Below, one piece after another: positions 38,935 to 64,000 of a DNA stretch of 64,000 nucleotides (within the stretch, counting starts at the first letter, position 1; each line of letters starts with the position of its first letter). Source of the DNA: a virus. Location: the IMG/VR virus record IMGVR_UViG_3300031576_000038, positions 754 to 64,753 of that record. One strand, given 5' to 3'. The notes under the pieces were generated by a model. The model had not been told where the DNA came from, did no database searches, and was given only the letters and a program-made list of their open reading frames with translations. Position numbers and translations under genes: made by a program.

Positions 38935-38951
38935 GCCTTACCCCAAACGAA

Positions 38952-40066: not shown

Positions 40067-40069
40067 AGC

Positions 40070-40937: not shown

Positions 40938-41093
40938 GTGACACCCTCAATCTGTCACCCCAGGCCCGCCAGCACTTCTGACACAGGTCATGACCAGGGA
41001 TGGAGTATGGCTGACGCGCTCTGGCCTTGCGGCTCCGCTTCTTGCCATAGCGCGGGAACGACACAGCTGGTCGGCCGCACTGCGAGCGCATCA

Positions 41094-42095
41094 TTAGACG
41101 GGCTCGAAAAGAGCGTCTTCGTTGCGCTGAGCGAAGTATTGACGAAGGTCGTCACGGAGCCGTGGCTTTTGCTCAGTCAACTGATAGAGGCCCTGGGTGT
41201 CACGATAGATGTCTGTGTATGGGTCGTACTCATTCTGGACGAGGATTTGCCAGCGGTCCACGTAGCGACGATTCTTCTTGTTGCCGTGCCAGTGGTGAAG
41301 GATGAGGCCCGGGACGTAGCCGACGTTGTACTTCAGCTTGAGGGCTCGATTCTCCCAGATGTCCAGGGCTTGCAAAAATGCCGGCGACATCTTCGGGTGA
41401 ACCGAATTGCGAATCTTGCCAAAGAGCCCGAAGGCCATATGGCGGTCATTGGCTCCGCAGATGCTTTGGTCAAATAGTCCGCCGAGCTTGTCGAGCGCGG
41501 ACCGACGCGCGGCCCAGGCGTAACCTGGATGCCCTACGGCCTGGTTGTAATACTCCAAGTCGGCCACGTCGAACTTCTTGTCCCAGCCGGCCCCGTTGAC
41601 CAAGTGGTAGCACATGGACTCTTGCACGCGGCAAGTGCCGCCGCCGAGGAGTTCGTAGTTGTGCGTCAAGTCCTGAGCATGGCTCCAGGGCTGGACCAGG
41701 TCGTAGTGCTGGAGCGCGTGAAGTGTGTCTTGAGCCCAGCGCGGGTTGACGAAGGTGATGTCGGCATCAATCCAAGCAATGTACTTGGCGTCGAGCGGCA
41801 GGCGATTGATGAGAAGATTCAGCCCGTTCTCTTTGTGCCAGAGAACATGGTCGGTACGAAGCTGAATGTCGTGAGAATTGTTCGGGTCGGTGATTTCAAA
41901 GCATCGACCACCGTTCTGGATTTCGCACGTGTACAGTTCGACGCCGGAGTCACGCATGTGCTTCTTGAAGCCTCGATACAATTCGTATCGCGTCCAGTAG
42001 CGGCGTGGGTTGACGATGACGGTAACAACATGCAGGCGGTCGGGGAAGGGCTTGAGCCCCTCGGTCGCCTGGGAGACATGGTCGATGGCATTCAT
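41094..42095 (-). CDS. glycosyltransferase, GT-A fold
   Basis: VVTVIVNPRRY and WIDADITFVNP carry a DxD motif. Start at MNAIDH. Confidence 0.5.
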   Translation of the reverse strand: MNAIDHVSQATEGLKPFPDRLHVVTVIVNPRRYWTRYELYRGFKKHMRDSGVELYTCEIQNGGRCFEITDPNNSHDIQLRTDHVLWHKENGLNLLINRLPLDAKYIAWIDADITFVNPRWAQDTLHALQHYDLVQPWSHAQDLTHNYELLGGGTCRVQESMCYHLVNGAGWDKKFDVADLEYYNQAVGHPGYAWAARRSALDKLGGLFDQSICGANDRHMAFGLFGKIRNSVHPKMSPAFLQALDIWENRALKLKYNVGYVPGLILHHWHGNKKNRRYVDRWQILVQNEYDPYTDIYRDTQGLYQLTEQKPRLRDDLRQYFAQRNEDALFEPV

Positions 42096-42301
42096 ACTTC
42101 CCTCTCTCTGTATTGTTTGGGGCGAAGCCGCTTCCAACTTTCGTGGTTAGGAAAGTATGGTAGCGTGATGTCATCGTAAATCGTGGGAAGACGGCGTCTC
42201 TTTCCTCGTGTGAACTGGTACTCCTCGGGTCGCGAGTTGCGACGACGCTCCTGAGTGGTTCGCGGGTTGCGCAACCAATGGTAGTTCCATTTGTGTCTCA
42301 T
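42092..42301 (-). CDS. hypothetical basic protein
   Basis: 69 aa ORF. Confidence 0.35.
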   Translation of the reverse strand: MRHKWNYHWLRNPRTTQERRRNSRPEEYQFTRGKRRRLPTIYDDITLPYFPNHESWKRLRPKQYREREV

Positions 42302-42382
42302 CGAATCTCCTTGTAAAGGCTAAAGCCCTTACAAGAAGACGGTAGCGAATGTGTTCATCTCTTATCATACCCTCGGAAGCAG

Positions 42383-42455
42383 TGTCCCCGGCAGGAATCG
42401 AACCCGCATCGCGACATTCGTAGTGTCGCATGTTCTCCGTTACACTACAAGGACA
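42383..42455 (-). tRNA. tRNA-Arg (anticodon ACG)
   Basis: Hand fold: acceptor GTCCTTG/CGGGGAC, D-arm GTGT-AACGGAGA-ACAT, anticodon stem CGACA/TGTCG with loop CTACGAA, T-arm GCGGG-TTCGATT-CCTGC. Confidence 0.65.
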
Positions 42456-42457
42456 TG

Positions 42458-42529
42458 AGCCCCCGCTGAGGCTCGAACTCAGCTATCCGGTTTACAGGAC
42501 CGGGACATCGCCATCAATGCTTCAGGGGC
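42458..42529 (-). tRNA. tRNA-Thr (anticodon TGT)
   Basis: Acceptor GCCCCTG/CGGGGGC, anticodon stem CCGGT/ACCGG with loop CCTGTAA, T-arm CTGAG-TTCGAGC-CTCAG. Position 33 is C, which is unusual. Confidence 0.5.
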
Positions 42530-42825
42530 GAACTTGGCATTGGTTGCTGCAATAAATACTCTCGGGACGCTTGCAGCGCTTGGCACAATGCCGACACTGC
42601 GATAAGTTCTGGTTTGACGTTTTCCTCAATCTCATCGTTGCTCAGTTCCGGCCCACACTGCTGGTGCTTGCACTTCACACCTTGCGTCCAGTATGGCCTA
42701 TCAATTGTCGCCGGAGTCTTGACGACCGGGCGACCGACGAAGCCGGCCATGTAAGCCGGCGGACACCACACCCGGCCGATGCCGGGAATCTGAATGTCCA
42801 CAGCGCCTGCGATGATGGTAATCAT
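42514..42825 (-). CDS. hypothetical protein
   Basis: 103 aa ORF. Its 3' end overlaps the tRNA 5' end by about 16 nt. Confidence 0.3.
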   Translation of the reverse strand: MITIIAGAVDIQIPGIGRVWCPPAYMAGFVGRPVVKTPATIDRPYWTQGVKCKHQQCGPELSNDEIEENVKPELIAVSALCQALQASREYLLQQPMPSSPLKH

Positions 42826-43013
42826 GTCTTCTCTTTTTCTTCAACTGGTTCTGGCACGACCGGCGGCTCCCATTGTGCGAAGGACCAGTCGCCGTACTTG
42901 ATGAACGTGTCCTCGTTGTGCCACACATGCCAACCAATGAAGTTGATGATGTAGGCTGCCAACAGCAACGGACCAATCAGCAGGAAGAAAGGCACAGTCA
43001 AGAGACGGTTCAT
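42822..43013 (-). CDS. small membrane protein
   Basis: Transmembrane helix FFLLIGPLLLAAYIINFIGW. Confidence 0.35.
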   Translation of the reverse strand: MNRLLTVPFFLLIGPLLLAAYIINFIGWHVWHNEDTFIKYGDWSFAQWEPPVVPEPVEEKEKT

Positions 43014-43022
43014 GTCGCTCTC

Positions 43023-43370
43023 CTAAAAATTGGGGTGACCGGTCGGGGTCGAACCGACACACTCCGGATTCACAGTCCGGCGCTCTACCATTGAGGCTAC
43101 GGTCACACGGTTATCATCGTACTTGGGCAAAGAGTCTATGTAGTCGTCAATGTCCTGGTCGGTTATCGGACTGCCTGCGTCGAACTTCAAAGACGTGTCA
43201 TCAGCGGTGAAGTCATAGAGCCGAAGCATTCTGCGGTTGCCAATCGCGAGCGTCGTATGAATGCTTTTCAGAACAGCAATCAACCAAAACAACTGGAACA
43301 CCAGGATGACCGGACACATCAAGATAAACAAGAGCCAGCCAAGAACAATCAGGTCGATGAGGTCATTCAT
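43023..43370 (-). CDS. membrane protein (ORF reads through the tRNA-His)
   Basis: Start at MNDLIDLIVLGWLLFILM. The last 27 codons overlap the tRNA, so the real C-terminus is uncertain. Confidence 0.3.
   Translation of the reverse strand: MNDLIDLIVLGWLLFILMCPVILVFQLFWLIAVLKSIHTTLAIGNRRMLRLYDFTADDTSLKFDAGSPITDQDIDDYIDSLPKYDDNRVTVASMVERRTVNPECVGSTPTGHPNF
43031..43106 (-). tRNA. tRNA-His (anticodon GTG), CCA encoded
   Basis: Acceptor GTGACCG/CGGTCAC followed by C and CCA. Anticodon stem CCGGA/TCCGG with loop CTGTGAA. T-arm GTCGG-TTCGACC-CCGAC. Confidence 0.6.
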
Positions 43371-43409
43371 AATAGGCCCGGTAGGATTTGCACCTACAAA
43401 CCACACGTT

Positions 43410-43880
43410 CTAAGCGTGTGAGGTATGCTGATTCCCTTCACGAGCCCGTTCTTGTTGGCTATGACAATTTGGGCACAGAAAACGAATGTTACTTGGCGAG
43501 TCATCTAGCCAGTTTCCATCTCTATGGTCTATCTCCAATGTCAGCGCTCTCTCTTGCCATAGGTGACCAAGTCCACATAGTTCACATTCGTAAAGTCGGC
43601 CACTCTCCAATAGCGCTCGTCGCAGTCTGTATGATTTCTCTCTGTGGCCAGTCTTTCGTTTCACTAGAAGCTTACGCCAAGGCACACGCTGATTACTGAT
43701 GCGACCCTTATTGTGGCCCTGGCCACTAAAATGCGACGTATCAATGCCGAAGTATTTTAGTCTCCTAGAGATGTGCGAATGGTTGCCGCCATTTTGCCTC
43801 AAGCCAAGATTACGCAATACCTGAGCAACCGAAAACGCCTCATCTGCCGCGCTTTGAAGTCTCTCTTTCGTATGTCTCAT
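43410..43880 (-). CDS. HNH endonuclease
   Basis: CELCG...HLWQ...LEIDHRDGN...LCPNCH. Confidence 0.65.
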   Translation of the reverse strand: MRHTKERLQSAADEAFSVAQVLRNLGLRQNGGNHSHISRRLKYFGIDTSHFSGQGHNKGRISNQRVPWRKLLVKRKTGHREKSYRLRRALLESGRLYECELCGLGHLWQERALTLEIDHRDGNWLDDSPSNIRFLCPNCHSQQERAREGNQHTSHA

Positions 43881-44461
43881 AGTTATCAGTGGAGGCGTCC
43901 GGTACTGCCCCGGAGTGTTGAGTGCCGTCAGAAATCGCGTCTACTATCATAGCCGGCTGTTTGAATCGTGTCGCCTTCCGCCTAACAATCCGGCAAGAAC
44001 TGTCGGTCGGCCAGCCTCATACTTACTTCCTGCTTACAGAGGCAGCAGGCTCGCACAGAACATCGTGGCCATAACCTTCGGGTACTTAGTCCTGACGCCT
44101 TCCCGAAGGCCAGGCGGCTAAGCCGCCATTGCAAACTGAGGAGCTTTGTCGGTTGACATTGCTGTCGAGTATTTACGTGGCCGCTCGACAAACCACGGAT
44201 AGCTGCGAGTAACCTATGTCACTCAGTCGAATCTGTTTCGCCCCCTATGAATGTGTGCCGGAATGCCCGGCACTTCACGCACCAATGTTCGACGAGCGGC
44301 TTGCCGTCGTCGGTGAACTGTCGAGCAACGTGCATCACACGCCAATGCGCACGATGACGCCACATGCACCAAAAGGTCCAAAGAAACTCAATCACGCTTC
44401 GCCTCCCAAATCAATGTAGAGGTCTTCAATGTCTTCATCTTTCATCCGGTTCCTTTCACAG

Positions 44462-44534
44462 TGGACTCGAAGGGAATCGAACCCTTCACACCAGGCTTGC
44501 AAAGCTCAGTCGCCCCCTTGGAACATGCGAGCCC
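44462..44534 (-). tRNA. tRNA-Ala (anticodon TGC)
   Basis: Acceptor GGGCTCG/CGAGTCC with a G3-U70 pair. Anticodon loop TTTGCAA. T-arm AAGGG-TTCGATT-CCCTT. The D and anticodon stems are weak. Confidence 0.5.
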
Positions 44535-44535
44535 A

Positions 44536-45378
44536 TTACTTCAGCCAATCGGCAATGTAGTCTTTCAGACTTCGCACTGGCGTCCAACCGAAGTCGTTTG
44601 TCGCCATTGAAAAGTCAGCGAGTGTTTCCCATGCCTCACCAGGCCGGCGAGGAATGAACTCGATTGGTCCGCCAAACATCTGTGCGACTTCCAGAATGGA
44701 ATAGTTCACACCGGTGCCAAGGTTGTATACTTGACCGCTGCCGCGCTGTTCGCTCATGGCAATCAAGCCACGAACAATGTCACTCACGTGGGTAAAGTCT
44801 CGACGCTGCTGGCCATTGCCGGTCACCGTCAGTGACTTGCTCTCACGCATCTGTTTTTCAAAGACGCCGATGACTGTGCTGTAGGCTCCAGCTTCAATCT
44901 GGCGCTTGCCATAGACATTGAAGAAGCGAGCAATCGTGGTGCTGACGCCGAACACCTTCGAGTACAGCCGACAGAGTTCTTCACCCTGCCACTTCGCGAA
45001 CGCATAGGGGTTCGCATAGATGTCGTGGTAGAAGGTTGACGACCCCGCATATACGACTCGGGCTCCCCATCCCCTGGCCATCTCCAGCACGTTGAGCGTG
45101 CCGTTGTTGTTGACGAAGAGTGTGCCCCAGGGGTCCGTGAAAGACATCTGGATGCGTGGTTGCGCGGCCAGGTGAAAGATTACATCTGGCACAAAGCCGG
45201 TCGAAGGCCAGACCCAATCAGTGACACAGCCCAGGTGGAACTCTGCCTTGCCATTCACATTGTCGAACTTACCCGTCGAGAGGTCGTCCAGGATGACAAC
45301 CTGGTCGCCTCGGTCGAGAAGCGCGTCCACCAAATGGCTACCAATGAAGCCCGCCCCACCAGTCACCAGAGCCTTCAT
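44536..45378 (-). CDS. NAD-dependent sugar epimerase/dehydratase (extended SDR)
   Basis: Start at MKALVTGGAGFIGSHL. Catalytic YAFAK is the YxxxK motif. Confidence 0.7.
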   Translation of the reverse strand: MKALVTGGAGFIGSHLVDALLDRGDQVVILDDLSTGKFDNVNGKAEFHLGCVTDWVWPSTGFVPDVIFHLAAQPRIQMSFTDPWGTLFVNNNGTLNVLEMARGWGARVVYAGSSTFYHDIYANPYAFAKWQGEELCRLYSKVFGVSTTIARFFNVYGKRQIEAGAYSTVIGVFEKQMRESKSLTVTGNGQQRRDFTHVSDIVRGLIAMSEQRGSGQVYNLGTGVNYSILEVAQMFGGPIEFIPRRPGEAWETLADFSMATNDFGWTPVRSLKDYIADWLK

Positions 45379-45485
45379 ACCTGTCCTCCTATCACAATTT
45401 GGCGAGCCGCTTGCACTCCGCACAGCAGCGAGCGGCCCTGGATATGCGGTCCAGGGTGGGTCTCCGTCTGCCCACCACGCCAAAG

Positions 45486-45560
45486 TAAGGGATGCAGGAT
45501 TTGAACCTGCGTTCTCGACCGTCCGAGGGTCGCGACCACTCCTGGCTGGTCCAATCCCTT
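45486..45560 (-). tRNA. tRNA-Pro (anticodon CGG)
   Basis: Acceptor AAGGGAT/ATCCCTT. D-arm GACC...GGTC. Anticodon stem CGACC/GGTCG with loop CTCGGAC. T-arm GCAGG-TTCAAAT-CCTGC. Confidence 0.6.
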
Positions 45561-45607
45561 GTCACACCAGGCTTATAGCCAGGTCCTGCCCTTTTGCAAG
45601 GGCATAT

Positions 45608-45678
45608 TCGGAGAAGGTGGAGTTGAACCACCGACCGATGCTTCCAAGGCACCGATGATACCGTTTCAACATTCTCCG
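45608..45678 (-). tRNA. tRNA-Pro (anticodon TGG)
   Basis: Acceptor CGGAGAA/TTCTCCG. Anticodon stem GGTGC/GCATC with loop CTTGGAA. T-arm GGTGG-TTCAACT-CCACC. The D-arm is weak. Confidence 0.5.
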
Positions 45679-45682
45679 TTTG

Positions 45683-45910
45683 TCATCCAAGCTGGTCTTC
45701 ATTGAACCAGTTCGCCGCCAGCACTTTCTCAGCACCATATCCGTCCGGATGGATGTACCAGACGTAGTGACTCAACGCTCCCGGGTGACAGTCAAGTAGG
45801 TAACGCGGTTTGCCATCATTGCCATACAGGTCAATGAGCACAATCGTGCCAGTAAAACCTGGATGAGGCAGCACATCAACTTCTTGACGAAGAGCAAACT
45901 TGTGAGTCAC
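45683..45910 (-). CDS. hypothetical protein
   Basis: 75 aa ORF between tRNA genes. Confidence 0.4.
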   Translation of the reverse strand: MTHKFALRQEVDVLPHPGFTGTIVLIDLYGNDGKPRYLLDCHPGALSHYVWYIHPDGYGAEKVLAANWFNEDQLG

Positions 45911-46006
45911 GCATCACCGTCTTTCACAAAGCACCGGGCCAGTGAGTCGAACACTGATAGCGAGGTTCAAAGCCTCGCGTCCTGCCGTTGAACGAGCCCG
46001 GAGTGA

Positions 46007-46126
46007 TTACTTTTCTCCAGTGTACCGAGCCTCACATGCGTTGCAACGATACTTCAAGTCGCCAACCTTGGTGAACACATTGCATCCGCATTCACAGCGG
46101 AAGCTCTTGCCGTTTATGAAACACAT
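46007..46126 (-). CDS. small zinc-ribbon peptide (39 aa)
   Basis: Reads MCFINGKSFRCECGCNVF...CNACE. The longer ORF form would overlap tRNA-Gln. Confidence 0.2.
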   Translation of the reverse strand: MCFINGKSFRCECGCNVFTKVGDLKYRCNACEARYTGEK

Positions 46127-46137
46127 CACTTGCTCAG

Positions 46138-46209
46138 CAGAGGCAGCCGGAATCGAACCAGGCTTCTCATCGTTCAGAGCGATGGGTCCTGCCATTGGAC
46201 GATACCTCC
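46138..46209 (-). tRNA. tRNA-Gln (anticodon CTG)
   Basis: Acceptor GGAGGTA/TGCCTCT. D-arm GTCC-AATGGCA-GGAC. Anticodon stem CATCG/CGATG with loop CTCTGAA. T-arm CCTGG-TTCGATT-CCGG. Confidence 0.6.
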
Positions 46210-46212
46210 AAT

Positions 46213-46245
46213 AAAAAAAGCGGCCTTTGAGGGGCCGCTTTGTAT
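46213..46245 (-). terminator. rho-independent terminator
   Basis: Minus strand AGCGGCC-cctcaa-GGCCGCT followed by TTTTTTT. An A-run on the other side makes it potentially bidirectional. Confidence 0.55.
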
Positions 46246-46347
46246 GCAGTTACGCGCGTACCTCTCACTTGTCCTTGATTGTCGCAGGGCGTTGGTGCAG
46301 GCGCGGGAGTGGCAGAGATAGCTTGCTCATGACTGATATTACACCGA

Positions 46348-46674
46348 CTACTGTCGTTCTTCCCAATGTTTCTTGCGATGGCAGTTCGCACATAACGTGT
46401 CGCATTTACCAATCTCGGCCAGGATGACCGACCAAGGTCTTCCGTCTGTTGCTAAGTCGCTGACTTCAGCAATCTTTGTCGCTGGGTCGCGATGATGAAA
46501 GTCGATACACGCCTCATGGCTTTCGCCGCATACAACACAAGGATGTGTTCGACGATACTCTCGAACTTTCTCTCGCAACCCATCGCGGCGAGCGCAGACC
46601 TGGGCTATCTTACGTTCCTTATTGCTCGCGTAATGCTCTTTGAAGTAGAGCGTTCGTTCTCTTCGTTTTGTCAT
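46348..46674 (-). CDS. HNH endonuclease
   Basis: CVVCGESHEACIDFHHRD...CANCHRKKH. Confidence 0.6.
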   Translation of the reverse strand: MTKRRERTLYFKEHYASNKERKIAQVCARRDGLREKVREYRRTHPCVVCGESHEACIDFHHRDPATKIAEVSDLATDGRPWSVILAEIGKCDTLCANCHRKKHWEERQ

Positions 46675-46833
46675 GAATGGTTGGCGATGTCACTCTCTTG
46701 GGTCATAATCGTCTGGCTTCCACCAGTCTGCTGGGTCTCGCTGCTGAGCAGGAGAAGGTTCCTTCATCCACCTTGCAATCAGGTGGTGAACAATGACGCC
46801 GGTCAAAAGGCCAATGAGGAAGTTCGCCATAAG

Positions 46834-46909
46834 AGCACCCGGAGGAAGTTGAATCCTCACCTTCGGTTTGGAAGACCGACATGCTGAGACCGTTGAACAC
46901 CACGGGCGC
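46834..46909 (-). tRNA. tRNA-Gly (anticodon TCC)
   Basis: Acceptor GCGCCCG/CGGGTGC. Anticodon stem TCGGT/ACCGA with loop CTTCCAA. T-arm GAGGA-TTCAACT-TCCTC. The D region is slightly long. Confidence 0.45.
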
Positions 46910-55381: not shown

Positions 55382-56434
55382 TTACTTGGCTGCCCCGGCC
55401 GTATGGTCCCAGGTCGGTGCCAAGTCTTTTGTCTGCGTTGTGTCCACGAGCACCTTGGTTCCGCGAGGCAGCTTGCGATTCACGGACGTGCTCTGAATGA
55501 AGATGTCGAAGTTGCTGTGGTTGCCGGGCTCGCACTTCACCGTATCGCCGTCAGGCAGACCGATGAGATGACGGGCGTCTCGACCACCCCACACAGCCTT
55601 CTTGCCCTTCTCCATGATGAGGATGGACTTCTGAGGCTGAATCTTTTCTGTCTTCATCAGTTGATAATATGCGCTGCCAATCACATAAGGCTTGCGCGTT
55701 TTCAACTCGACGAAGTCCTTGACGGAGGCTTCCTTTGCGACCTCGAACTGCTTGAACTGGTTCGAGATGTCGTCGAGGTTTTTGCGGACCTCTTGCGAGT
55801 CCAGCTTGGACAGGTCGGTCTGGAAAAACTTCGTGACCTTCTTCTGTCCTCGGGCTCGTGCCGCGAAGTAGCCGCCGAGTCCGGAGACCGTAGCAACCTG
55901 CGTCTCGACCATGCCCTGGCTGGTGGTTTCCCACTCGCGGATGTTGTCACTCGGAATCTTGAAGTCGCGGGCCAGCGCTGCGCCATTCCCAGGCGGAACC
56001 TGGAAGACGAAAGACCAGCGGTCCGTCGCCTGTGTGTCCTTCAGGAGCTTGGCAATCTGCGTGGCATTGAACCTCGTGCTCTGATTCTCAAGGCCATCGG
56101 TGACCACGATGACCAGGTAGGACGTGTCCTCGTCGTCCTTCAGAGTTTGCAGCGTCGTCACTGCCAGCCCGATGCCGTCGAGCATCGCGGTCATCCCATC
56201 GGGATGATAGGCTGTCAGCGGCTTGAGTGTGTCCGCTTGTGCGTTGAAAAATTCCATCACCGCGCGATTCGCGAAGGTGAAGTAGGACACGGTGGTTTCT
56301 TGGTCGCGGCTCTTCTCGGCCACAGTCTTGACGATGGCGTTGAAGGCGTTCATGGTCTCGGTACGAATCGACGACATGGAGCCGGAACGGTCCAGCACGA
56401 TGGCGATACGATTCTTCAACTTGCTTTTCGGCAT
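55382..56434 (-). CDS. von Willebrand factor A (vWA) domain protein
   Basis: MIDAS motif IAIVLDRSGSMSS. VIVVTDGLEN. Confidence 0.65.
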   Translation of the reverse strand: MPKSKLKNRIAIVLDRSGSMSSIRTETMNAFNAIVKTVAEKSRDQETTVSYFTFANRAVMEFFNAQADTLKPLTAYHPDGMTAMLDGIGLAVTTLQTLKDDEDTSYLVIVVTDGLENQSTRFNATQIAKLLKDTQATDRWSFVFQVPPGNGAALARDFKIPSDNIREWETTSQGMVETQVATVSGLGGYFAARARGQKKVTKFFQTDLSKLDSQEVRKNLDDISNQFKQFEVAKEASVKDFVELKTRKPYVIGSAYYQLMKTEKIQPQKSILIMEKGKKAVWGGRDARHLIGLPDGDTVKCEPGNHSNFDIFIQSTSVNRKLPRGTKVLVDTTQTKDLAPTWDHTAGAAK

Positions 56435-56976
56435 AAGCCTTCTTCCTTTCTCAAGCGGACCAGAGCCCGCTGTTCAATTTGCTCGACACGCTGTCGAGAT
56501 ACTTGCAACTTCTGTGCGACCTCTTTCGTTTCCAGCCCCTGGACGTACAACAGGTCCAGTACGTCCGCATACTTCTTGGGCAGGCAACGCAGGAGAGTGG
56601 CAACCTCCTCCTTGTTCTCGTAGACTGCTCCGACGCGCTCTTGGTTGGCGGCGTAGTAGTCAAGTCCACCGGCTTGGCCGCGCACCCGCTTCATGGGCGG
56701 ATGCTTCGGCGTGAAGCCAATCATCGGCAGAATGTACCTGGCCGCATGACGCATGTAGTATGCGACCCAATACTCAGCATAGGTCCTGAAGGTCGCCCCG
56801 CCGTCCGACTTCCATTTGTCGGCAGCGATGACGAGACCAATGTTGCCGTAGCCGATAGCGTCTTCCTTACCGAGCTTGGTCAACGCGAACAATCCGTCGT
56901 GGACCAAGTCCCAATAGACGTGCTCTGGCAAGTCCAGATTCGCCGTCACCAACTCGTTCCGCTTTTGAACATCCAT
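56416..56976 (-). CDS. RNA polymerase sigma factor (sigma-70 family)
   Basis: Region 2 YAEYWVAYYMRHA. Region 4 LETKEVAQKLQVSRQRVEQIEQRAL. Confidence 0.6.
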   Translation of the reverse strand: MDVQKRNELVTANLDLPEHVYWDLVHDGLFALTKLGKEDAIGYGNIGLVIAADKWKSDGGATFRTYAEYWVAYYMRHAARYILPMIGFTPKHPPMKRVRGQAGGLDYYAANQERVGAVYENKEEVATLLRCLPKKYADVLDLLYVQGLETKEVAQKLQVSRQRVEQIEQRALVRLRKEEGLCRKAS

Positions 56977-56988
56977 GTTCCCAACTCC

Positions 56989-57354
56989 TCAGCGTATGGC
57001 GAAAAACCGTGCCGCCCGTTCACACATGGCGAGCACATCCAATTCGAGACTGTTTGGCACGTCGCCGGCAACTCCGGCGTCACCGTTGCGCTTGGTCAAG
57101 TATTCGACCAGGCGATTCACTGGTGCGGCCCGCTTCACTGCCTTCGCGATACCGATGTCGCGGTCGAACTCATCCATGCCGATGTGACACTTCGAGTAGC
57201 CGACCAGGACCTGGCCATCGGGCTGCTTGTAGGCCAGCACCACACCAATCTTGCGGCGGTGCCGGTCACGCTTGTATTCGAGCAGCACGTGAGTGGACTG
57301 TAGCAGCGACTTGTTTTCCTCCTGACATGCAGCAACGTACTCTTGCCTTGTCAT
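56989..57354 (-). CDS. hypothetical protein
   Basis: Start at MTRQEYVAAC. Confidence 0.4.
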   Translation of the reverse strand: MTRQEYVAACQEENKSLLQSTHVLLEYKRDRHRRKIGVVLAYKQPDGQVLVGYSKCHIGMDEFDRDIGIAKAVKRAAPVNRLVEYLTKRNGDAGVAGDVPNSLELDVLAMCERAARFFAIR

Positions 57355-57540
57355 GATTAGGCTCCTGTGTTTGTTGACTGTCGAGAGGCTTATAGCGGCG
57401 AGAGATGATTCTGCAACACAACTTCTCAACTTTTCTACTTCGAGGTCTCAGCCGGCGGGGATTCCAAATTCTGCCTGTGGTTGCTCATTGGACCGGGTTT
57501 TGGGACTCTCCCACAGTCTCCGGCCCGCCAGCTGATATTA

Positions 57541-57612
57541 GTACCGGGGGCTGGATTCGCACCAGCGTCTCCAGCTTATGAGGCTGGCAAGGTAGCTTCT
57601 CCTCCACCCCGG
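57541..57612 (-). tRNA. tRNA-Met (anticodon CAT; could be elongator or a lysidine-modified Ile type)
   Basis: Acceptor GCCGGGG/CCCCGGT. D-arm GAGG-AGAAGCTA-CCTT. Anticodon stem CCAGC/GCTGG with loop CTCATAA. T-arm GCTGG-TGCGAAT-CCAGC. Confidence 0.55.
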
Positions 57613-57702
57613 CAACAGGATATTACACCCGAGTGCGTCGTCGGACATAGTCTTTCAGCAGGAAAGGATACATCGTCAGCACCGCGCTCAACATCAAAAA
57701 CT

Positions 57703-58104
57703 CTAGCATGTCTCCTCCGTAGTGCAAACGGGGCAAAGCGTAGGAAGGATGCTCTCAGCGAAGATTTTCGCGGACGGTGTAAGTGGGAGCCAGGCGCGCT
57801 GCTTGTCGGGCTCGGTCAACTGAGGCTCGCCATCCCAGGCCGGCCACATCAAGAGCAGGTCGGTGAACTTCTTCTTGGGGTCGCGCATCCCGGGGCCATC
57901 CGCGTAGCCAACGAGCCGTGGGATGCCCTGAAGCGTCATGCCTGTCTCCTCTTTCTGCTCACGCAGAGCGGCATCCAAAACGTATTCATCGTCCACCTTG
58001 CCGCCTGGTAGCTCCCATAGGTTCACATCGGCCCGTAGGCCCAGGAGAAGGCGGTCCTGCTTGTCAATCAGAACGTTGCGAACAACGAGTATGGGACGCC
58101 TCAT
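57703..58104 (-). CDS. Nudix hydrolase (MutT-like)
   Basis: Nudix box GGKVDDEYVLDAALREQKEETG. Confidence 0.7.
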   Translation of the reverse strand: MRRPILVVRNVLIDKQDRLLLGLRADVNLWELPGGKVDDEYVLDAALREQKEETGMTLQGIPRLVGYADGPGMRDPKKKFTDLLLMWPAWDGEPQLTEPDKQRAWLPLTPSAKIFAESILPTLCPVCTTEETC

Positions 58105-58907
58105 GAGGTCTCCAGTATTGGTTGGGGGCGATACATCCTAATGGGCTCGAAGCGTCTGGTCTTGCGACCATGCCAGTTGACACCCATCTCGCCCGCGTCT
58201 TCGGTTGCTAGGTGAATGCCAATGAGTTCCGGAATCAGATGCCTATGCGTTCTCGGCCAGCGTGCTGCAAACAGCATGTCGGAGACAGCTGCCGACTCGG
58301 ACTTGGTTGGGTATGCTCGGAAGCATGAAGCCTCACGGTGGAACATCTGGAAGTATCCGAGTGGCACATAGCCGCCAATCTCCCTACGGTTGAGCCTGAT
58401 GCCAAGTGGAAAAGGCCCAACATAAACATAGGCCAGGTCGTGCTGGGGCACCGGTCTCGCAAGAAAGTTTTCCCATGCCTCGTAGGACGGACACATCATG
58501 CGGTCTATGCCGTAGATGAACTGCTCATTGAGTGGCAATGTTTCCAGAATGCTCCGTGTCTTTGGTGGTAACACCATGTCGGCGTCCAGGTGAACGGCCC
58601 ACTCGCGAAAACAAAGCTTCTCCAATCCAATGTTGATAGCCACGCCCTTGTTCACGACCTGGTCGGTTATCATTTCATCTGTGGCAACGCACTCGACATT
58701 GTAGTAGTGACATAGATTGCGCGTTTCCGTATCCCCAAGCGAAGTCACTACGACACTTCGGTTGAAGTGTGACTTGAAGAGTGGGAGCGTGTGTCTGAGG
58801 TAGTCGCCGTAGCGAACACAGACTGTGACAGATTCCATAATAAACATGACGGGACCGAGAGGTAAATGAGGAACTCCCCAATGCCAAAGAACAGCCCCGC
58901 TGTCCAC
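58101..58907 (-). CDS. glycosyltransferase, GT-A fold (paralogue of 38056-38934)
   Basis: HLDADMVLPP is a DxD motif. YVPLGYFQMF. The shared blocks align with the 38 kb gene. Confidence 0.55.
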   Translation of the reverse strand: MDSGAVLWHWGVPHLPLGPVMFIMESVTVCVRYGDYLRHTLPLFKSHFNRSVVVTSLGDTETRNLCHYYNVECVATDEMITDQVVNKGVAINIGLEKLCFREWAVHLDADMVLPPKTRSILETLPLNEQFIYGIDRMMCPSYEAWENFLARPVPQHDLAYVYVGPFPLGIRLNRREIGGYVPLGYFQMFHREASCFRAYPTKSESAAVSDMLFAARWPRTHRHLIPELIGIHLATEDAGEMGVNWHGRKTRRFEPIRMYRPQPILETS

Positions 58908-58922
58908 AATCCGATAAGAACG

Positions 58923-59429
58923 CTACGAGAAATCAGGCTGCGATGTCGGCTCAGTAAAATCGAAATGCAGGAGCCCGCGTAGATGAGCAATCTCATGCTG
59001 CGCCACGACAGCGTGGTAAATGAGAAGGTCATCCTTGCACTCCCTGTCGCCAATGAGCCGGCGACCAATGTTCAGAGTTTCGACTTCGACCCAGGGCCAG
59101 CGATAGGTCTTCACGCTTTGGCCTGGGAAGCTAAGGCATCCTTCGGTGAAGGCTATCTTGTGGTCGGCGTGGGCAACAATCACTGGATTGATAAGGGCCA
59201 TGCGAAACCGATTCACTGCAACCACGCACACCTGTTTCAGGATGCCAATCTGCGGCGCGGATAAGCCAGCAGCAAAGCGACCCGTCTCACCTTTCTTCTC
59301 AGCCTTGATAGCCCGAACGTTGATGTGGTTCAACGCATAGTTCAGCTTGCGAGCAAGAGCTATACCCTCGTCCTTTGTTACGGGCTCAGACCGCTGCCGC
59401 AAGAAGACTTCGTCTTTGACAATTTCCAT
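58923..59429 (-). CDS. def: peptide deformylase
   Basis: GLSAPQIG, EGCLSFPG and QHEIAHLRG are Def motifs 1, 2 and 3. Confidence 0.75.
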   Translation of the reverse strand: MEIVKDEVFLRQRSEPVTKDEGIALARKLNYALNHINVRAIKAEKKGETGRFAAGLSAPQIGILKQVCVVAVNRFRMALINPVIVAHADHKIAFTEGCLSFPGQSVKTYRWPWVEVETLNIGRRLIGDRECKDDLLIYHAVVAQHEIAHLRGLLHFDFTEPTSQPDFS

Positions 59430-59566
59430 AGGTCACCAAAGCATTTTCAATAGGGCGTAGCCCACAACAACGATGACCACTACGCGCAGCCATCGAAACC
59501 GTTTCGGCGGCAGACTGCCGCGAACTTGGGAACATCCAGTGAGACCGCCAGGGAAAATAATCATAG

Positions 59567-59700
59567 TAGCCCGGGTAGGAGTCGAACCTACATTACCTTT
59601 CTCCATCAGCCGACCAGGTCGTGAGATGGCGTCACCAGCCGAAGGCAGGAGATACATCCGGTATCATTCCAGGCATGTTGCCGGCTCAGGGGTTTCCGGC
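59567..59700 (-). ncRNA. tRNA-like 3' module (T-arm plus acceptor 3' strand); 5' partner not resolved
   Basis: GTAGG-TTCGACT-CCTAC then CCGGGCT-A. Upstream structured region with a GCCTTCGGC tetraloop hairpin. No clean cloverleaf found. Confidence 0.25.
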
Positions 59701-59715
59701 TCCCCACTTCAACTG

Positions 59716-60054
59716 CTACTGACGCTTCTCTTTGAGCCCGAGGACGCGAAGAACCTTCTGACGCAGCTTGAAGAGCGTCGGCTCGTCTTCTTCGTTAGGG
59801 ATGCAGTCCGAGACGTGCGCGATGTTACAGGCGAATCGAACATCCAGGCCAATGTCGGCAGCGGCCGTTTCGTGACCGACCTGTTCGTAGCTTTCTTTGG
59901 GATTGCCAGCAACAAACCGAGCCACGGCAACCACCAGGCAGTCGTGCGTATAGCGTTGCCGAATTTGGTCTGCCTTGCTGATGCAGAATGGTCGCTGCTC
60001 AGCGCAGAGCTTCGCTTTCTTCCAGAACGTTGCCTCTGACATCTTTTTTGCCAT
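59716..60054 (-). CDS. hypothetical protein
   Basis: Start at MAKKMSEATFW. Confidence 0.4.
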   Translation of the reverse strand: MAKKMSEATFWKKAKLCAEQRPFCISKADQIRQRYTHDCLVVAVARFVAGNPKESYEQVGHETAAADIGLDVRFACNIAHVSDCIPNEEDEPTLFKLRQKVLRVLGLKEKRQ

Positions 60055-60496
60055 GATACCAAACCTCCAACGGAGACAAGTCACGAGCGTAGCGACGTTG
60101 CATACGCTCTATGATGTCGCGGCCGACGCCGTGAGTATTCCGCTTGACCAACTCGTCGATGTCCCACGCCCAGGGCGTGGTTGGTTCCTGGTACTGGACT
60201 TCGTATCCGTGGTCGCCGGCTATCTGCACATACGGCTTGATGTCACGCAAGCGCACGTTGGTGTTGTCAACAATCACCACCGGCACCTTGTTGAGACACG
60301 CACACGTAAACTCTGTCCAGCACTTCATGTGGGCCTGGTGAAGTAGCTTTACGTCGAACTTGTAGGTGCCATCTGCCTGCTTGAAGAAGTCATCAGCAGA
60401 GAAGATGAGGGCACCGGGATACTTGGCCACAATCTCACGAGCGAGCGTTGACTTGCCGGACCCAGGCAGGCCACGCATGATGATGCAGAGCTTCAT
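59999..60496 (-). CDS. P-loop kinase, polynucleotide-kinase-like (kinase domain only)
   Basis: Walker A IMRGLPGSGKSTLA. FSADDFF. The layout resembles Pnk or zeta-toxin-like kinase domains. Confidence 0.5.
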   Translation of the reverse strand: MKLCIIMRGLPGSGKSTLAREIVAKYPGALIFSADDFFKQADGTYKFDVKLLHQAHMKCWTEFTCACLNKVPVVIVDNTNVRLRDIKPYVQIAGDHGYEVQYQEPTTPWAWDIDELVKRNTHGVGRDIIERMQRRYARDLSPLEVWYHGKKDVRGNVLEESEALR

Positions 60497-60960
60497 GACG
60501 GACCGGACTCCTCTTCGTCAGTTTCGCTGGACGTGCTCGACTCGCTGGACTCTTCCTCTTCATCGCCGAGCATCTCAGACAGTTGCTTGTCCGTCAGTCG
60601 CCACTTGCGACACTCGGCCAACGCTGTTTGAACATCGCCATCATTGGTGACGCGCGACACGTTATGGATATGGGTCAACGTCTCGCGGAGCTTGCGGGTT
60701 TCGAGGTAGGCAAGTTGTGTGCGGTCGTTGGCCTTGTCTACCTCGCATTGAACTTCAGCTATCTCTCGCTCTAATCGCTCAATGGCACGCTCCAGGCCGG
60801 CCACTCGGCGACGGTCGCATGAGTTGATGTCTTTCTTCAGTTGTTCGATTGTGGCCAGGTGCGCGGAATTTTCTGCGTACAACGTGGCAATCGCCTTGCG
60901 GTGATGCTCGCGGAAAAACCACGGCGGGGCAGCAATCAAACTTTCGATGGTGTTGTCCAT
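60493..60960 (-). CDS. hypothetical protein with acidic Ser/Glu tail
   Basis: 155 aa ORF. Confidence 0.4.
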   Translation of the reverse strand: MDNTIESLIAAPPWFFREHHRKAIATLYAENSAHLATIEQLKKDINSCDRRRVAGLERAIERLEREIAEVQCEVDKANDRTQLAYLETRKLRETLTHIHNVSRVTNDGDVQTALAECRKWRLTDKQLSEMLGDEEEESSESSTSSETDEEESGPS

Positions 60961-61274
60961 TGTTCTCTACCTCCTCGAAGCATCCACCACTCCCAGGCAG
61001 ACGCAACCACGTCCCCATGACACGCTTGTGGTTTGCACCAGCAGCCCAGGACGCTTTCGTTCGTAAGCGACTCGATTGCGGCAACCACAACCTTGTTGCC
61101 AGAAGTGAGAGCCTGATACAGCCAACGGCGATAGTTGTCAATAGCAGCTTCGCGAGAAAGCTCGGCTGAAATCCGATAGGGATTTCCAAGCGGGCTGGGG
61201 CGACCAATGTAGACCACGCCCTTGGCCTGCGCCTCCGTGATGCTGCCGAATTCTCGCACGTTGAGTATCTGCAT
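60936..61274 (-). CDS. DUF4326-like protein
   Basis: VYIGRPSPLGNPY...LGCWCKPQACHGDV. Confidence 0.4.
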   Translation of the reverse strand: MQILNVREFGSITEAQAKGVVYIGRPSPLGNPYRISAELSREAAIDNYRRWLYQALTSGNKVVVAAIESLTNESVLGCWCKPQACHGDVVASAWEWWMLRGGREQWTTPSKV

Positions 61275-61277
61275 GGC

Positions 61278-61586
61278 TCACCCGCTGATACTTGGTTTCT
61301 TTTCGTCTGCCGGCACACCACTGGCAGCGCCACGACCGAAGCCAAAGAAGTCGCGGACCCCCTCGATGTAATGGTTGGCACCGACCCGCTCGTTGCGGAA
61401 CTCGGCCTTGGCTTCTTCAATCTCAGCGATGGAAGCGCCATCGGCCTCTTCGTCGGGAAGCTCGCCCTCATTCTCGGCGAGACCTTGTTTGATTGCCTTT
61501 TTCTTGGCGTTGGGGCCGGAGTAGCACTGGCCCTTCTCACCCCATCGCCATCCCTTGTTTCCTTCACCGCACCGCTGTAGAGGCAT
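61278..61586 (-). CDS. hypothetical protein
   Basis: 102 aa ORF. Confidence 0.35.
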   Translation of the reverse strand: MPLQRCGEGNKGWRWGEKGQCYSGPNAKKKAIKQGLAENEGELPDEEADGASIAEIEEAKAEFRNERVGANHYIEGVRDFFGFGRGAASGVPADEKKPSISG

Positions 61587-62016
61587 CGTCGCTCCTATGT
61601 TTGATGAAGACCTTTTCGGTCACTAGGTAATAGAACACAGCTTCCTGGTCGTAATAGACCAGTGTCATGTCCGCAATGTGGTGCATCTTTTCTTCAGAGC
61701 ACGAAATGCGGACCGGAATCATTCGTTCGGCAAAGAGCGTTCCGCTTGGCGAAAGCCACTGCCCCTTGGCAGGAGGAAGCACAGTCAAGCCGCCGGAGAT
61801 AGCCCGGACCTTTTCATCCCAGACCTTATGGAACCTGAGACGGATAGGCTTCCCGTCTCGGTGCAGAGTCGGCACCAGGATTTCCCACACCTGGCTCATG
61901 TAGTTCTCCAAACGCTGTCCCACATCGCGGACATACGTGCATTGGAACTTCGCGCATCTCCTGGCCTGTGCCAGGCGACCAACGAAGTGGCGGTCGTTCA
62001 ACAGTATGGGTGCCAT
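61564..62016 (-). CDS. hypothetical protein
   Basis: 150 aa ORF. Start uncertain (62016 or 61902). Confidence 0.35.
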   Translation of the reverse strand: MAPILLNDRHFVGRLAQARRCAKFQCTYVRDVGQRLENYMSQVWEILVPTLHRDGKPIRLRFHKVWDEKVRAISGGLTVLPPAKGQWLSPSGTLFAERMIPVRISCSEEKMHHIADMTLVYYDQEAVFYYLVTEKVFIKHRSDDASTAVR

Positions 62017-62221
62017 CTTCCTCGAAGCGGATAATCATACAGGGGCCGCGAGCTTTGATGGCAGCAATAATGCTTGCCGCTCGACGCCGAGAGAAGTGCA
62101 ATGCAGTAGCGATGATAAGACAAAGACCGCCAACCAACACAACGCTGAAAGACATCAGGAACAGAGCGTCGTCAGTCGTCATCGTCATCATCTCCACACG
62201 CGCACGGCTCACAGCCACAGA

Positions 62222-63154
62222 TTAGACAAGGGCCTTGAATCGGTCTCTCCAATATGACAGCTTGAGCGTGCTGTAGTCGAACTCTTGTTGCTGGGCGTGC
62301 TCCCATACCGCGCCGAGGAACCGGTCATCGAGTCCGTGAAGCCGGTCCACTACGAGCACAGGGAGATTCGCTTCCTGCATGTACTCAGCCATGCGGCAGC
62401 GCTGAATGATTGGGATGCACCCGAGGTAGAGGGCCTCGTATGTGCGGTAGCAGTCTAGGCCATTCCCGGTCGGGCACAGCACGAACTTGTGAGTGGCCAC
62501 GCTTTCCAGGTACTGCTCGATGGTCAGATTGGTATCGAGTTGAGTCGTCGCCCAGGGCAGTTGACTGTAGTGCTGCTTGAGAGCGAGCCGCTCCATCGTT
62601 CGATGCTGGAAGTTGACGTAGAGCAGGCCGGCCTTCGGTCGCTCCATGTAGTTGGGTAGCAGTTGATAGCCAGGCGGGTCCGAACTGAGGCCGAACGGCA
62701 ACCACTCGGCTCGCGCAACGTCCGCATTCAGGTTGGCAACGAACCATCGCTTGATGTTGGGCGGCACATAGTCGAACGTTGCACACGTGCCACGGTCAAT
62801 CTTGATGCTGTAGCGGTGCGACAGGTCACATTGCCCTGGGTCACACGTCGGACCAACCTGGAACGCAAAGTATCGGTCGCGGATGCCGGCGATTTCATCC
62901 CATCGAACAGCCTGGGCGAGCTTCACCAGGTCACCGTTTGGATGTGCCTTCTCCTGCTCATGAATCCCATAGTCTGAACAGGCGCTGACAAGAACTTTGT
63001 CGGCCAGAACGTCAGCGTTGCTGGCTGCCTCGATGTCTCGAAACAGTTGCTTTATGCCTTCGTTCGCACAGAAGGTCGCGCCAACTTCCTTGGCGAGTTG
63101 CTCGTAGGATGTGCATAGGATATGTTCAGACGGCTCAACACGTTGCAGCCCCAT
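62222..63154 (-). CDS. glycosyltransferase (exostosin/GT47-like C-terminal motif)
   Basis: HKFVLCPTGNGLDCYRTYEALYLGCIPII. Start at MGLQRVEP. Confidence 0.45.
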   Translation of the reverse strand: MGLQRVEPSEHILCTSYEQLAKEVGATFCANEGIKQLFRDIEAASNADVLADKVLVSACSDYGIHEQEKAHPNGDLVKLAQAVRWDEIAGIRDRYFAFQVGPTCDPGQCDLSHRYSIKIDRGTCATFDYVPPNIKRWFVANLNADVARAEWLPFGLSSDPPGYQLLPNYMERPKAGLLYVNFQHRTMERLALKQHYSQLPWATTQLDTNLTIEQYLESVATHKFVLCPTGNGLDCYRTYEALYLGCIPIIQRCRMAEYMQEANLPVLVVDRLHGLDDRFLGAVWEHAQQQEFDYSTLKLSYWRDRFKALV

Positions 63155-63338
63155 TCGGATTCTCCTTTGGCGGACGGATGGTGAACCAGACGCGGTTCGT
63201 TTGAAGCAGCGGGTTGAGTTGCTGAAACAGTTCCTCAACATGCTGCTGACACATCTCAGCTTCTTGGCGAATGTTGTCCGTGCCCCAGGAGCAGTGGGCT
63301 ACTACTCCGCGACCACAGGGAGTCAATTCACACGTCAT
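63135..63338 (-). CDS. hypothetical protein
   Basis: Start at MTCELTPCG overlaps the upstream stop as ATGA. Confidence 0.3.
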   Translation of the reverse strand: MTCELTPCGRGVVAHCSWGTDNIRQEAEMCQQHVEELFQQLNPLLQTNRVWFTIRPPKENPNGAATC

Positions 63339-63610
63339 GGCTTGGCCTCCAAGACGGCTTCCATTTCCTCTTGGTCCCACGACATCAAGAGGATAGTCCT
63401 GCAATGCTCGCACTCAAATTCGACGACGTGGCCCGAGTAGATATTCTCGTGGTCGAACCAGCCGTCGCCGTAGTCGTTGCCGTGGCGATGACAGGCCGGG
63501 CACTCGTACTCAACATAGCCGAGGCCACAGCCTTCTTCGCAATGCTGAACGAACCTAGCGATACTTTTCAAGGTAGGCTCCGCTGACACACTTGAAGCAT
63601 ATGCGGCCAA
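63335..63610 (-). CDS. hypothetical zinc-binding protein
   Basis: CEEGCG...CPACHRHG...CEHC. Confidence 0.4.
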   Translation of the reverse strand: MAAYASSVSAEPTLKSIARFVQHCEEGCGLGYVEYECPACHRHGNDYGDGWFDHENIYSGHVVEFECEHCRTILLMSWDQEEMEAVLEAKP

Positions 63611-64000
63611 TGTGCGAGTCGAAGCGCTCTTTCACCGGCTTGATGACCACGCCTTCGCGGATGGTCCCGGCCTTGGCATCGGGAACAAGACTTTGTCCCT
63701 CAGCCAGGGCACACGCCTCCTCGAAGTTGTATTTGCCGGTGTTGGGGATGTGAGGCACCCAAGGGAAATCGTCGCTCTTGCAACAGTCTGCCGTGCGACA
63801 GCGAGCTTCGTAGGCGTCGAGCCACTTGCCTTCGTACATCAGGTCGAAGGCCGCGAACCGATTGCCATCGGGTAGCCCGTACTTGATGCAGTTGACATTG
63901 CCGAAGACTTCGCCATAGACGATGACGCCGGGGCAGGCGCGACAGAACTCTTCGATGATGGGATACTTGTCGAGCATCTCCCACCAGAGGTTCTTCCGCT
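63555..64000 (-). CDS. ATP-dependent RNA/DNA ligase-like protein, C-terminal part (continues beyond window end)
   Basis: IVYGEVFG is nucleotidyltransferase motif-III-like. TIREGVVIKPVKE is motif-IV/V-like. The KxDG motif I would lie upstream, outside the window. Confidence 0.4.
   Translation of the reverse strand, partial: RKNLWWEMLDKYPIIEEFCRACPGVIVYGEVFGNVNCIKYGLPDGNRFAAFDLMYEGKWLDAYEARCRTADCCKSDDFPWVPHIPNTGKYNFEEACALAEGQSLVPDAKAGTIREGVVIKPVKERFDSHIGRICFKCVSGAYLEKYR

Follow-up and report, generated by a model that had tools for sequence, protein, structure and literature searches.

We analysed a 64,000-nucleotide stretch of viral DNA (positions 754 to 64,753 of IMG/VR record IMGVR_UViG_3300031576_000038; hereafter the window), towards one end of which lie a gene for a small polynucleotide kinase (PNK)-like protein and part of a gene for an ATP-dependent RNA ligase. 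An initial annotation had read these two genes as the activities needed to heal and seal cleaved tRNAs, in the manner of the T4 Pnk/Rnl counter-defence against anticodon nucleases. Two metagenomic contigs of 123 kb and 194 kb, both 100% identical to the window across 12-14 kb, encode an identical kinase protein, and the 123-kb contig (locus L001) adds 6,496 bases past the window end; features in this added sequence are given in extended coordinates, calculated as 70497 minus the L001 position. The genes of most concern here, each of them single-copy in the 70.5 kb available, are the following.

35189-36133, minus strand: RlaP (RNA-ligase-associated Pol-beta) nucleotidyltransferase (PF10127, E 1.9e-16)
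40070-40696, minus strand: calcineurin-type metallophosphoesterase (Pfam Metallophos and Metallophos_2, ~1e-9)
59999-60496, minus strand: PNK-like P-loop kinase of 165 amino acids (AAA_33, T4 Pnk match)
63555-64000, minus strand: C-terminal 148 codons of an Rnl5/DRB0094-like ATP-dependent RNA ligase, the frame open to the window end
66320-67465 (extended coordinates, beyond the window; L001:3032-4177), minus strand: T4 Rnl1-type RNA ligase of 381 amino acids (PF09511)

The kinase gene, whose start overlaps the stop of the upstream gene, encodes a protein with a single domain (Pfam AAA_33, E 1.4e-15) and no other domain match, and a fused DxDxT (HAD) 3'-phosphatase domain is absent from its 165 residues. 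This agrees with its first description as a kinase-only, Pnk-like protein, as do its top PDB sequence match, which is T4 Pnk (E 1.3e-9), and its placement in PHROG 2071 ('ATPase', 6e-25) and PHROG 505 ('polynucleotide kinase', 7.5e-18). When the AlphaFold model of the kinase (predicted local distance difference test score 93.9) was searched with Foldseek, ranks 1-16 and 18 were all T4 Pnk (best E 9e-9), and the lower matches included fungal kinases, O-phosphoseryl-tRNA kinase (PSTK), mammalian PNKP, Clostridium thermocellum Pnkp (CthPnkp) and Pnkp1. The active-site motifs are intact. The P-loop GLPGSGKS (residues 9-16; GCPGSGKS in T4 Pnk) keeps K15 and S16 and is invariant in family alignments, D35 aligns with the catalytic D35 of T4, which activates the acceptor 5'-OH, and is invariant in 40 homologues, and in the phmmer alignment the lid residue R119 aligns with T4 R126, which contacts the beta-phosphate of the nucleoside triphosphate.

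A database search returned 941 homologues of the kinase, of which the closest (40-54% identity) are mostly stand-alone proteins of 135-180 amino acids, and the named close homologues are NEDD4-binding protein 2, N4BP2-like 2, CNPase or "predicted kinase". The family signature is RGLPGSGKS ... SxDD ... DNTN ... RNxHGV, in which H122 and V124 of the last motif are invariant in the clade, and the window kinase has every residue that is invariant across a 40-sequence alignment (R8, G9, G12, S13, G14, K15, S16, D35, D77, N78, H122 and V124). Judged from its sequence and structural model, this is a kinase-only member of the PNK fold belonging to the clade of N4BP2 and the CNPase N-terminal domain, not to the T4 clade; our literature search for N4BP2 and polynucleotide kinase in combination with phage found nothing. 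The possibility that it is a deoxynucleoside monophosphate (dNMP) or thymidylate kinase paralogue, raised at the outset, was rejected, as no such family was matched and T4 Pnk is the best match by both sequence and fold; a separate dNMP-kinase-like gene is found at 9669-10691. A second AAA_33 P-loop protein, of 197 amino acids, is encoded outside the window, ~6 kb past its start, with glycosyltransferase and PhoH genes around it (L090:18050-18643); it is unrelated in sequence to the 165-amino-acid kinase and had no PDB match.

The ligase-like gene at the window end was correctly recognised as partial, since its frame runs off the end; the portion within the window matches positions 63-171 of 171 of Pfam RNA_ligase PF09414 (E 3.4e-12). 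From the 100%-identical contig we recovered the full protein of 375 amino acids (extended coordinates 63555-64682), which consists of an N-terminal OB domain (PF21189, residues 18-97) and a nucleotidyltransferase domain (PF09414, residues 162-366) that ends the protein. It matches TIGR02306, the DRB0094 type, over profile positions 11-341 of 341 (E 9.3e-34), and its top PDB match is the Naegleria gruberi Rnl5 ligase NgrRnl (E 1.5e-7), which aligns with it in both domains, each protein ending ...YLEK(Y/H)(R/K). Motifs I, III, IIIa, IV and V are present in the translation as KLDGAN, YGEVFG, FAAFDL, EGVVIKP and FKCVS. By these sequence matches the protein is a divergent TIGR02306 member, and the full sequence thus classifies it as an Rnl5-type RNA ligase and not a DNA ligase.

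The second ligase gene lies 2.3 kb past the first and 5.8 kb from the kinase. Its product matches Pfam RNA_lig_T4_1 (PF09511, E 9.1e-16), has T4 Rnl1 as its only PDB matches (E 2.4e-7) and carries motifs that align with those of T4 Rnl1, including the lysine nucleophile (ECRG, EKCDGSL, FELCSP, FEGMV and MKIKS). The alignment ends at about residue 299-301 of the 374 in T4 Rnl1, so that the C-terminal third is unaligned with the T4 tRNA-specificity domain, although the length of 381 amino acids is similar. The likeness to T4 Pnk/Rnl drawn in the initial annotation therefore needs to be reassigned: the ligase in the window is of the nick-sealing Rnl5 type and is not an Rnl1 analogue, but a T4 Rnl1-type ligase is encoded just beyond it. 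The idea that the ligase might be a replicative DNA ligase was rejected, as neither protein matches DNA-ligase families in Pfam or NCBIfam (DNA_ligase_A_M among them). A sigma-70-family gene (L001:4645-5502) lies between the two ligase genes, and upstream of the Rnl1-type gene is an open reading frame (ORF) of 162 amino acids with a weak RNase HI-like match (L001:2538-3026). A 162-amino-acid protein at the matching position of another contig, L006, is unrelated to it, and with the weak RNase HI match this comparison revealed no conserved healing enzyme upstream of Rnl1.

Kinase and ligase activities, put forward initially as the two needed for healing and sealing, are both represented, but such repair also needs a 3'-end phosphoesterase. 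The search for a partner phosphatase elsewhere, which the initial annotation had suggested, yielded a candidate in the metallophosphoesterase gene at 40070-40696. This protein shares 29% identity across its whole length (E 2e-18) with VnaP_010, the first gene of a cassette in Vibrio phage VnaP, and its metal motifs (DxH, GD, GNH[DE], H, GH), compared with those of VnaP_010, read SDTHFSH, LGDFG, LGNHDH and YGHSHG. Dinuclear metallophosphoesterases are known RNA 2',3'-cyclic phosphodiesterases (PMC2190708). We consider the protein to be the likely missing 3'-end healing partner of the kinase, with a presumed 2',3'-cyclic-phosphate or 3'-phosphate substrate, and what makes it a candidate is its gene linkage with kinase homologues (24 of 80 loci, mostly within 2 kb), to which we now turn. 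In a non-exhaustive scan of ~50 window ORFs we found none encoding RtcB, a 2H phosphoesterase, an HD protein, a CCA-adding enzyme, Tpt1 or a splicing endonuclease.

The proximity of kinase and ligase in the window proves little when taken alone. The kinase family is nonetheless found recurrently beside RNA ligases in unrelated viral contigs. Vibrio phage VnaP has consecutive genes for a calcineurin-like phosphoesterase, Rnl1 and a kinase homologue; in Pseudomonas phage JG004 an Rnl1 gene directly precedes the kinase homologue, with phosphoesterases upstream; and in contig L006 a kinase 54% identical to ours lies between Rnl5-like (37%) and Rnl1-like (40%) ligases, all within 4 kb. The kinase is also near a CCA-adding enzyme in two further contigs. 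We then surveyed 80 IMG/VR loci with a kinase homologue, whose ORFs were scanned with local profiles. An Rnl1- or Rnl5-type ligase was near the kinase at 22 of the 80 loci (18 of 23 distances at most 1.7 kb, all on the same strand), and a homologue of the window phosphoesterase was within 10 kb at 24, at 20 of them within ~2 kb. RlaP was found at eight (five within 1 kb), a CCA-adding enzyme also at eight, DNA ligase at four, NAPRTase at three and NADAR at one.

On the evidence of family membership, active-site motifs and conserved gene linkage, we hold with moderate confidence that these genes encode a heal-and-seal pathway of unfused enzymes acting on broken RNA, the most probable target being tRNA cleaved by anticodon nucleases of the host. 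The metallophosphoesterase at 40070-40696 would open the cyclic phosphate and remove the 3' phosphate, a role assigned by analogy, after which the 165-amino-acid kinase, placed by its family and active site and with RNA as its presumed substrate, would phosphorylate the 5'-OH. An ATP-dependent ligase would then seal the break, the Rnl1-type enzyme probably acting on loop breaks and the Rnl5-type enzyme on duplex nicks; the families and motifs of the two ligases are clear, and the division of labour is suggested by existing knowledge of the two families. RlaP (35189-36133) may restore nucleotides that have been lost. The tRNA or other RNA substrate, the 3'-healing role of the phosphoesterase, the separate tasks of the ligases and the counter-defence purpose are modelled on the precedents of T4 Pnkp/Rnl1, CthPnkp and the comparative genomics of RNA repair in jumbo phages (PMC7824862, PMC2190708). 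An RNA-repair interpretation is thus supported at the level of sequence, and is stronger than when first proposed owing to the Rnl1-type ligase beyond the window, the candidate phosphatase and RlaP; from the same precedents we infer its use in counter-defence.

Several observations weigh against this interpretation. The genes are scattered in this genome: seven genes, unrelated or unknown, lie in the 3 kb that separate the kinase from the Rnl5-like ligase, and the phosphoesterase is found at a distance of 20 kb. F38 of the kinase, with K39 adjacent, occupies the position of T4 R38, which contacts the acceptor 3'-phosphate, and because of this replacement acceptor recognition would differ from that of T4. 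Both ligases score below the cut-offs of their closest families: 116.8 bits for the Rnl5-like protein, where the TIGR02306 equivalog cut-off is 151.15, and 63 bits for the Rnl1-type protein, where that of TIGR02308 is 242. The phosphoesterase is without a characterised close relative, its best PDB match being a hypothetical Aquifex protein. Finally, a host anticodon nuclease is not known for this uncultured phage, and the activities are predicted from sequence.

Some of these points could also be taken to mean that the genes are neighbours and not parts of one pathway, a reading we regard as unlikely. The kinase would then act on a DNA 5'-OH or on a small molecule such as nicotinamide riboside, in NAD+ salvage, with the ligases serving unconnected functions, such as tail-fibre attachment, for which T4 Rnl1 is known, or the sealing of nicks in RNA:DNA hybrids. 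The seven genes that separate kinase and ligase are compatible with this, and the kinase clade does occur beside NAD-salvage genes in some phages: the JG004 homologue adjoins genes for phosphoribosyl pyrophosphate synthetase and nicotinamide phosphoribosyltransferase, and the L006 homologue lies among NAPRTase, NMNAT, NUDIX and NADAR genes. Nicotinamide riboside kinase also appears among the weak PDB matches of the kinase (E 0.016), through the P-loop only. Against this, PNK enzymes outrank every nucleoside kinase in sequence and fold searches, and L006 and JG004 both have RNA ligases beside the kinase too. In our survey linkage to RNA ligases (22 of 80) and to the phosphoesterase (24 of 80) was far commoner than to NAPRTase (three) or DNA ligase (four), although CCA-adding enzyme, NAPRTase, DNA ligase and NADAR were searched by single sequence, with lower sensitivity than the iterated profiles gave for RNA ligase, phosphoesterase and RlaP.

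The heal-and-seal pathway that we favour resembles T4 Pnkp and Rnl1, which repair tRNA to counter PrrC, in having a PNK-fold 5'-OH kinase followed by ATP-dependent sealing by an Rnl1-family ligase. It differs from T4 in that the kinase is separate, of 165 amino acids and N4BP2-like, with RNxHGV in place of the T4 RxxxR lid and phenylalanine at R38; in that the 3'-healing candidate is an unlinked metallophosphoesterase in place of a fused HAD phosphatase; and in that there is an extra Rnl5-type ligase, while the Rnl1-like protein is unaligned beyond about residue 300. CthPnkp and the Pnkp1/Rnl/Hen1 system likewise combine a PNK-type kinase, a dinuclear metallophosphoesterase and an ATP-dependent ligase. 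Here, in contrast, the three activities are separate genes, and the phosphoesterase, with a weak YfcE-like match at most, is not demonstrably of the lambda-phosphatase/CthPnkp clade; there is no Hen1 methyltransferase, and the SpoU gene described below is 53 kb away with nothing linking it. The same gene logic is set out for jumbo phages in section 3.4.9 of Iyer, Anantharaman, Krishnan, Burroughs and Aravind 2021 (PMC7824862), whose inventory there includes many tRNAs, Rnl1- and Rnl2-superfamily ligases in combination, polynucleotide kinases and RlaP, as well as calcineurin-like phosphatases in some phages and ROT/TROVE proteins with a tRNA-like partner. Compared with the catalogue in that section our locus shows nothing categorically different, the variations being the N4BP2-like stand-alone kinase and the pair of Rnl1 and Rnl5-like ligases flanking a sigma-factor gene.

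The gene set is accordingly a good further instance of the tRNA-repair toolkit known from jumbo phages and not a new kind of system. It fits, and leaves unchanged, the current picture of phage counter-defence. Its value lies in being a clean, fully unfused version of heal-and-seal repair, in which kinase and phosphoesterase are each separate proteins and ligases of two types are present, from an uncultured genome that resembles those of jumbo phages. In addition, the small "ATPase" of the phage records examined (VnaP and the JG004 group) belongs to a PNK clade that also includes eukaryotic N4BP2 and CNPase, and its linkage in viral contigs to RNA ligases and a metallophosphoesterase offers a concrete annotation both for this kinase family and for the phosphoesterase.

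The most unusual feature of the window, and the part that could teach something new, lies outside the interval 59999-64000 that had first drawn attention. It is an array of small RNA-like elements next to a gene for Ro60:

52265-53867, minus strand: Ro60/Rsr gene, frameshifted (TROVE and vWA_Ro60, E 1.6e-67)
53957-55380, minus strand: array of nine Y-RNA-like modules upstream of Ro60, filling the 1.4 kb between a vWA gene and Ro60
54438-54567, 54806-54950 and 55088-55221, minus strand: three tRNA-shaped RNAs with inserts (Rfam tRNA, 47-52 bits)

The co-occurrence of Ro60 and tRNA-like RNAs noted in the initial annotation is borne out by this strong match and by three such RNAs beside the gene, with the qualification that the Ro60 reading frame is broken. 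One extra G in a run of five (53424-53428) causes a +1 frameshift that splits the gene into two ORFs, the N-terminal one corresponding to positions 4-148 of the Rsr profile and the C-terminal one to positions 145-528; removal of one G from the run gives a Ro60 ORF of 533 amino acids. The sequence at the frameshift is the same in two other assemblies, and a relative with 52% identity has one intact ORF. The frameshift could reflect a pseudogene, slippage or programmed frameshifting. A vWA gene lies upstream of the RNA array (55382-56434, minus strand) and a weak vWA match lies downstream of Ro60 (51480-52106, minus strand); after these flanking vWA genes come a GroES-like gene and a Band_7/SPFH gene, in a neighbourhood that takes in 49409-50767 (minus strand).

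The array is defined by the motif GCCG-N10-11-RTTATC, which includes a GNCGAA-type Ro60-binding element of the kind described for bacterial and phage Y RNAs (PMC4201824, PMC12135203). The motif occurs nine times, against 0.17 expected, with all copies in the array on the coding strand and none elsewhere in the window. Five of the copies share one two-helix stem-bulge fold of ~70-100 nucleotides, in which a lower stem of 6 bp and an upper stem of 8-9 bp enclose an internal loop that starts CG(A), and their paired positions vary in compensatory fashion; MAFFT misaligned the Y-like copies, and folds of trimmed constructs were compared in place of a formal covariation count. One copy gave a weak Rfam match, under the gathering score, to the nematode small RNA family ceN72-3_ceN74-2 (E 0.019). 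Nematode stem-bulge RNAs are regarded as Y-RNA homologues.

The three tRNA-shaped RNAs match the tRNA model end to end, with acceptor, D and T arms, and carry motif-bearing inserts of 58-87 nucleotides. ARAGORN called part of one of them as tRNA-Phe, and the loops CUUUUAA (found twice), GUGAAGA, CUCAUAA and UUGUAAU resemble the anticodon loops of Lys, Phe, Met and Tyr tRNAs. Judged from their sequence, these RNAs resemble a circular permutation of YrlA in which the break has shifted to the acceptor stem. Like the YrlA-type Y RNAs of Ro60/Rsr systems (Chen et al. 2014, PMC4201824) and those accompanying the Ro60 of Thermus phage phiLo (PMC12135203), they are same-strand RNAs upstream of Ro60 with a GNCGAA-type motif and tRNA-like D and T arms. 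Described bacterial and phage systems have one or two such RNAs, whereas nine motif copies are present here, and in our window the Ro60 ORF carries a frameshift. The three RNAs here have free acceptor ends and the motif within an expanded anticodon-arm region, whereas YrlA has a closed acceptor and bears the Ro helix at its ends.

Three tRNA-like genes with inserts 5 kb from the kinase invite the suggestion that the repair genes serve the phage's own RNA biogenesis and not counter-defence, by maturing or re-joining the insert-bearing tRNA-like and Y-like RNAs or by recycling tRNA fragments. The RNA at 54438-54567, for example, has a UUGUAA loop start followed by an insert at the canonical 37/38 position, and tRNA splicing in fungi and plants relies on the chemistry of an Rnl1-type ligase together with a PNK-type kinase (PMC10946426). 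We find this improbable, as the scan of window ORFs found no splicing endonuclease, the inserts carry the Ro60-binding motif, which suggests functional parts of Y-like RNAs and not introns, and linkage of kinase, ligase and phosphoesterase is widespread in phages while L089, the one Ro60-encoding relative examined, has no motif or tRNA-like RNA near Ro60.

In the heal-and-seal pathway, the tRNA set, tmRNA and Ro60/Y-RNA module would provide parallel upkeep of translation and RNA quality and would not form one machine with the repair enzymes. A bolder proposal, to which we give little credence, is that the array represents a new class of Y RNA with tRNA topology, acting as nuclease decoys or sensors or as repair platforms, and so tying Ro60 and the heal-and-seal enzymes into one system. 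These RNAs would be circularly permuted YrlA with free acceptor ends, the Ro60-binding motif inside the expanded anticodon-arm region and apical loops that copy anticodon loops; as decoys or sensors they would be directed at host anticodon nucleases, and as platforms they would pass broken tRNA on to the kinase and ligases of the phage. Our reading of the array comes from inspection and folding, and the one relative found, L089 (the only one examined), lacks it, with no Y motif or tRNA-like RNA near its Ro60.

The remaining translation-related genes named in the initial annotation are also present, together with a tmRNA:

6848-7351, minus strand: SPOUT (SpoU-family) 2'-O-methyltransferase (Pfam SpoU_methylase, E 1.1e-17)
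38951-57613, minus strand: 16 tRNA genes (ARAGORN; Rfam tRNA matches)
43887-44245, minus strand: tmRNA (Rfam, 67.1 bits, full length), inside the tRNA cluster
58923-59429, minus strand: peptide deformylase (Pfam Pep_deformylase, E 8.6e-23)

The large tRNA complement and the deformylase are as first described, and the methyltransferase was rightly placed in the SpoU family. Its more specific identification as TrmL was rejected: NCBIfam RlmB (3e-4) matched slightly better than TrmL (TIGR00185, 1.2e-3), both fell far under their cut-offs, and TrmL scored 18.7 bits against a cut-off of 190.6. The sequence supports membership of the SPOUT family alone, with a target that is not assignable, and nothing links either this gene or the deformylase to RNA repair. 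An HNH endonuclease gene (43410-43880) adjoins the tmRNA.

Three further genes point to ADP-ribose-related counter-defence, namely a DarG-like macro domain gene (19897-20334, minus strand, E 8e-21), a gene with a NADAR domain that immediately follows SpoU (6399-6860, minus strand) and a DUF4326 gene one gene upstream of the kinase (60936-61274, minus strand). The kinase homologue of contig L006 is directly adjoined by a NADAR gene.

We regard the window as part of a large phage-like genome. A megablast of 59400-64000 against 50,697 phage records gave no match, leaving this region without a close sequenced relative, and a search of IMG/VR with exact 40-mers gave none either. The many matches to PHROG families and phage records, the IMG/VR relative and the gene content make a phage origin likely; it is unproven because the readable sequence contains no structural gene. 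A promoter and terminator scan of 57400-64000 gave background levels. Between the ORF that follows the kinase and the peptide deformylase is a non-coding stretch of 280 nucleotides (59433-59715, minus strand), which gave no tRNA or Rfam call and folds no better than shuffled sequence; it holds a perfect T-arm-like hairpin (GTAGGTTCGACTCCTAC), then CCGGGCTA. Coding is almost wholly on the minus strand, at ~56% G+C, and the replication genes in the window are a split DnaE, DnaB, DnaG, RecA, ThyX and a class II ribonucleotide reductase. DnaE is arranged as follows:

180-1841 and 3649-5652, minus strand: DNA polymerase III alpha (DnaE), two separate ORFs

Between these two lie an RNase_T-type exonuclease ORF at 2645-3430 (261 amino acids; 217 on the matching contig) and several small ORFs.

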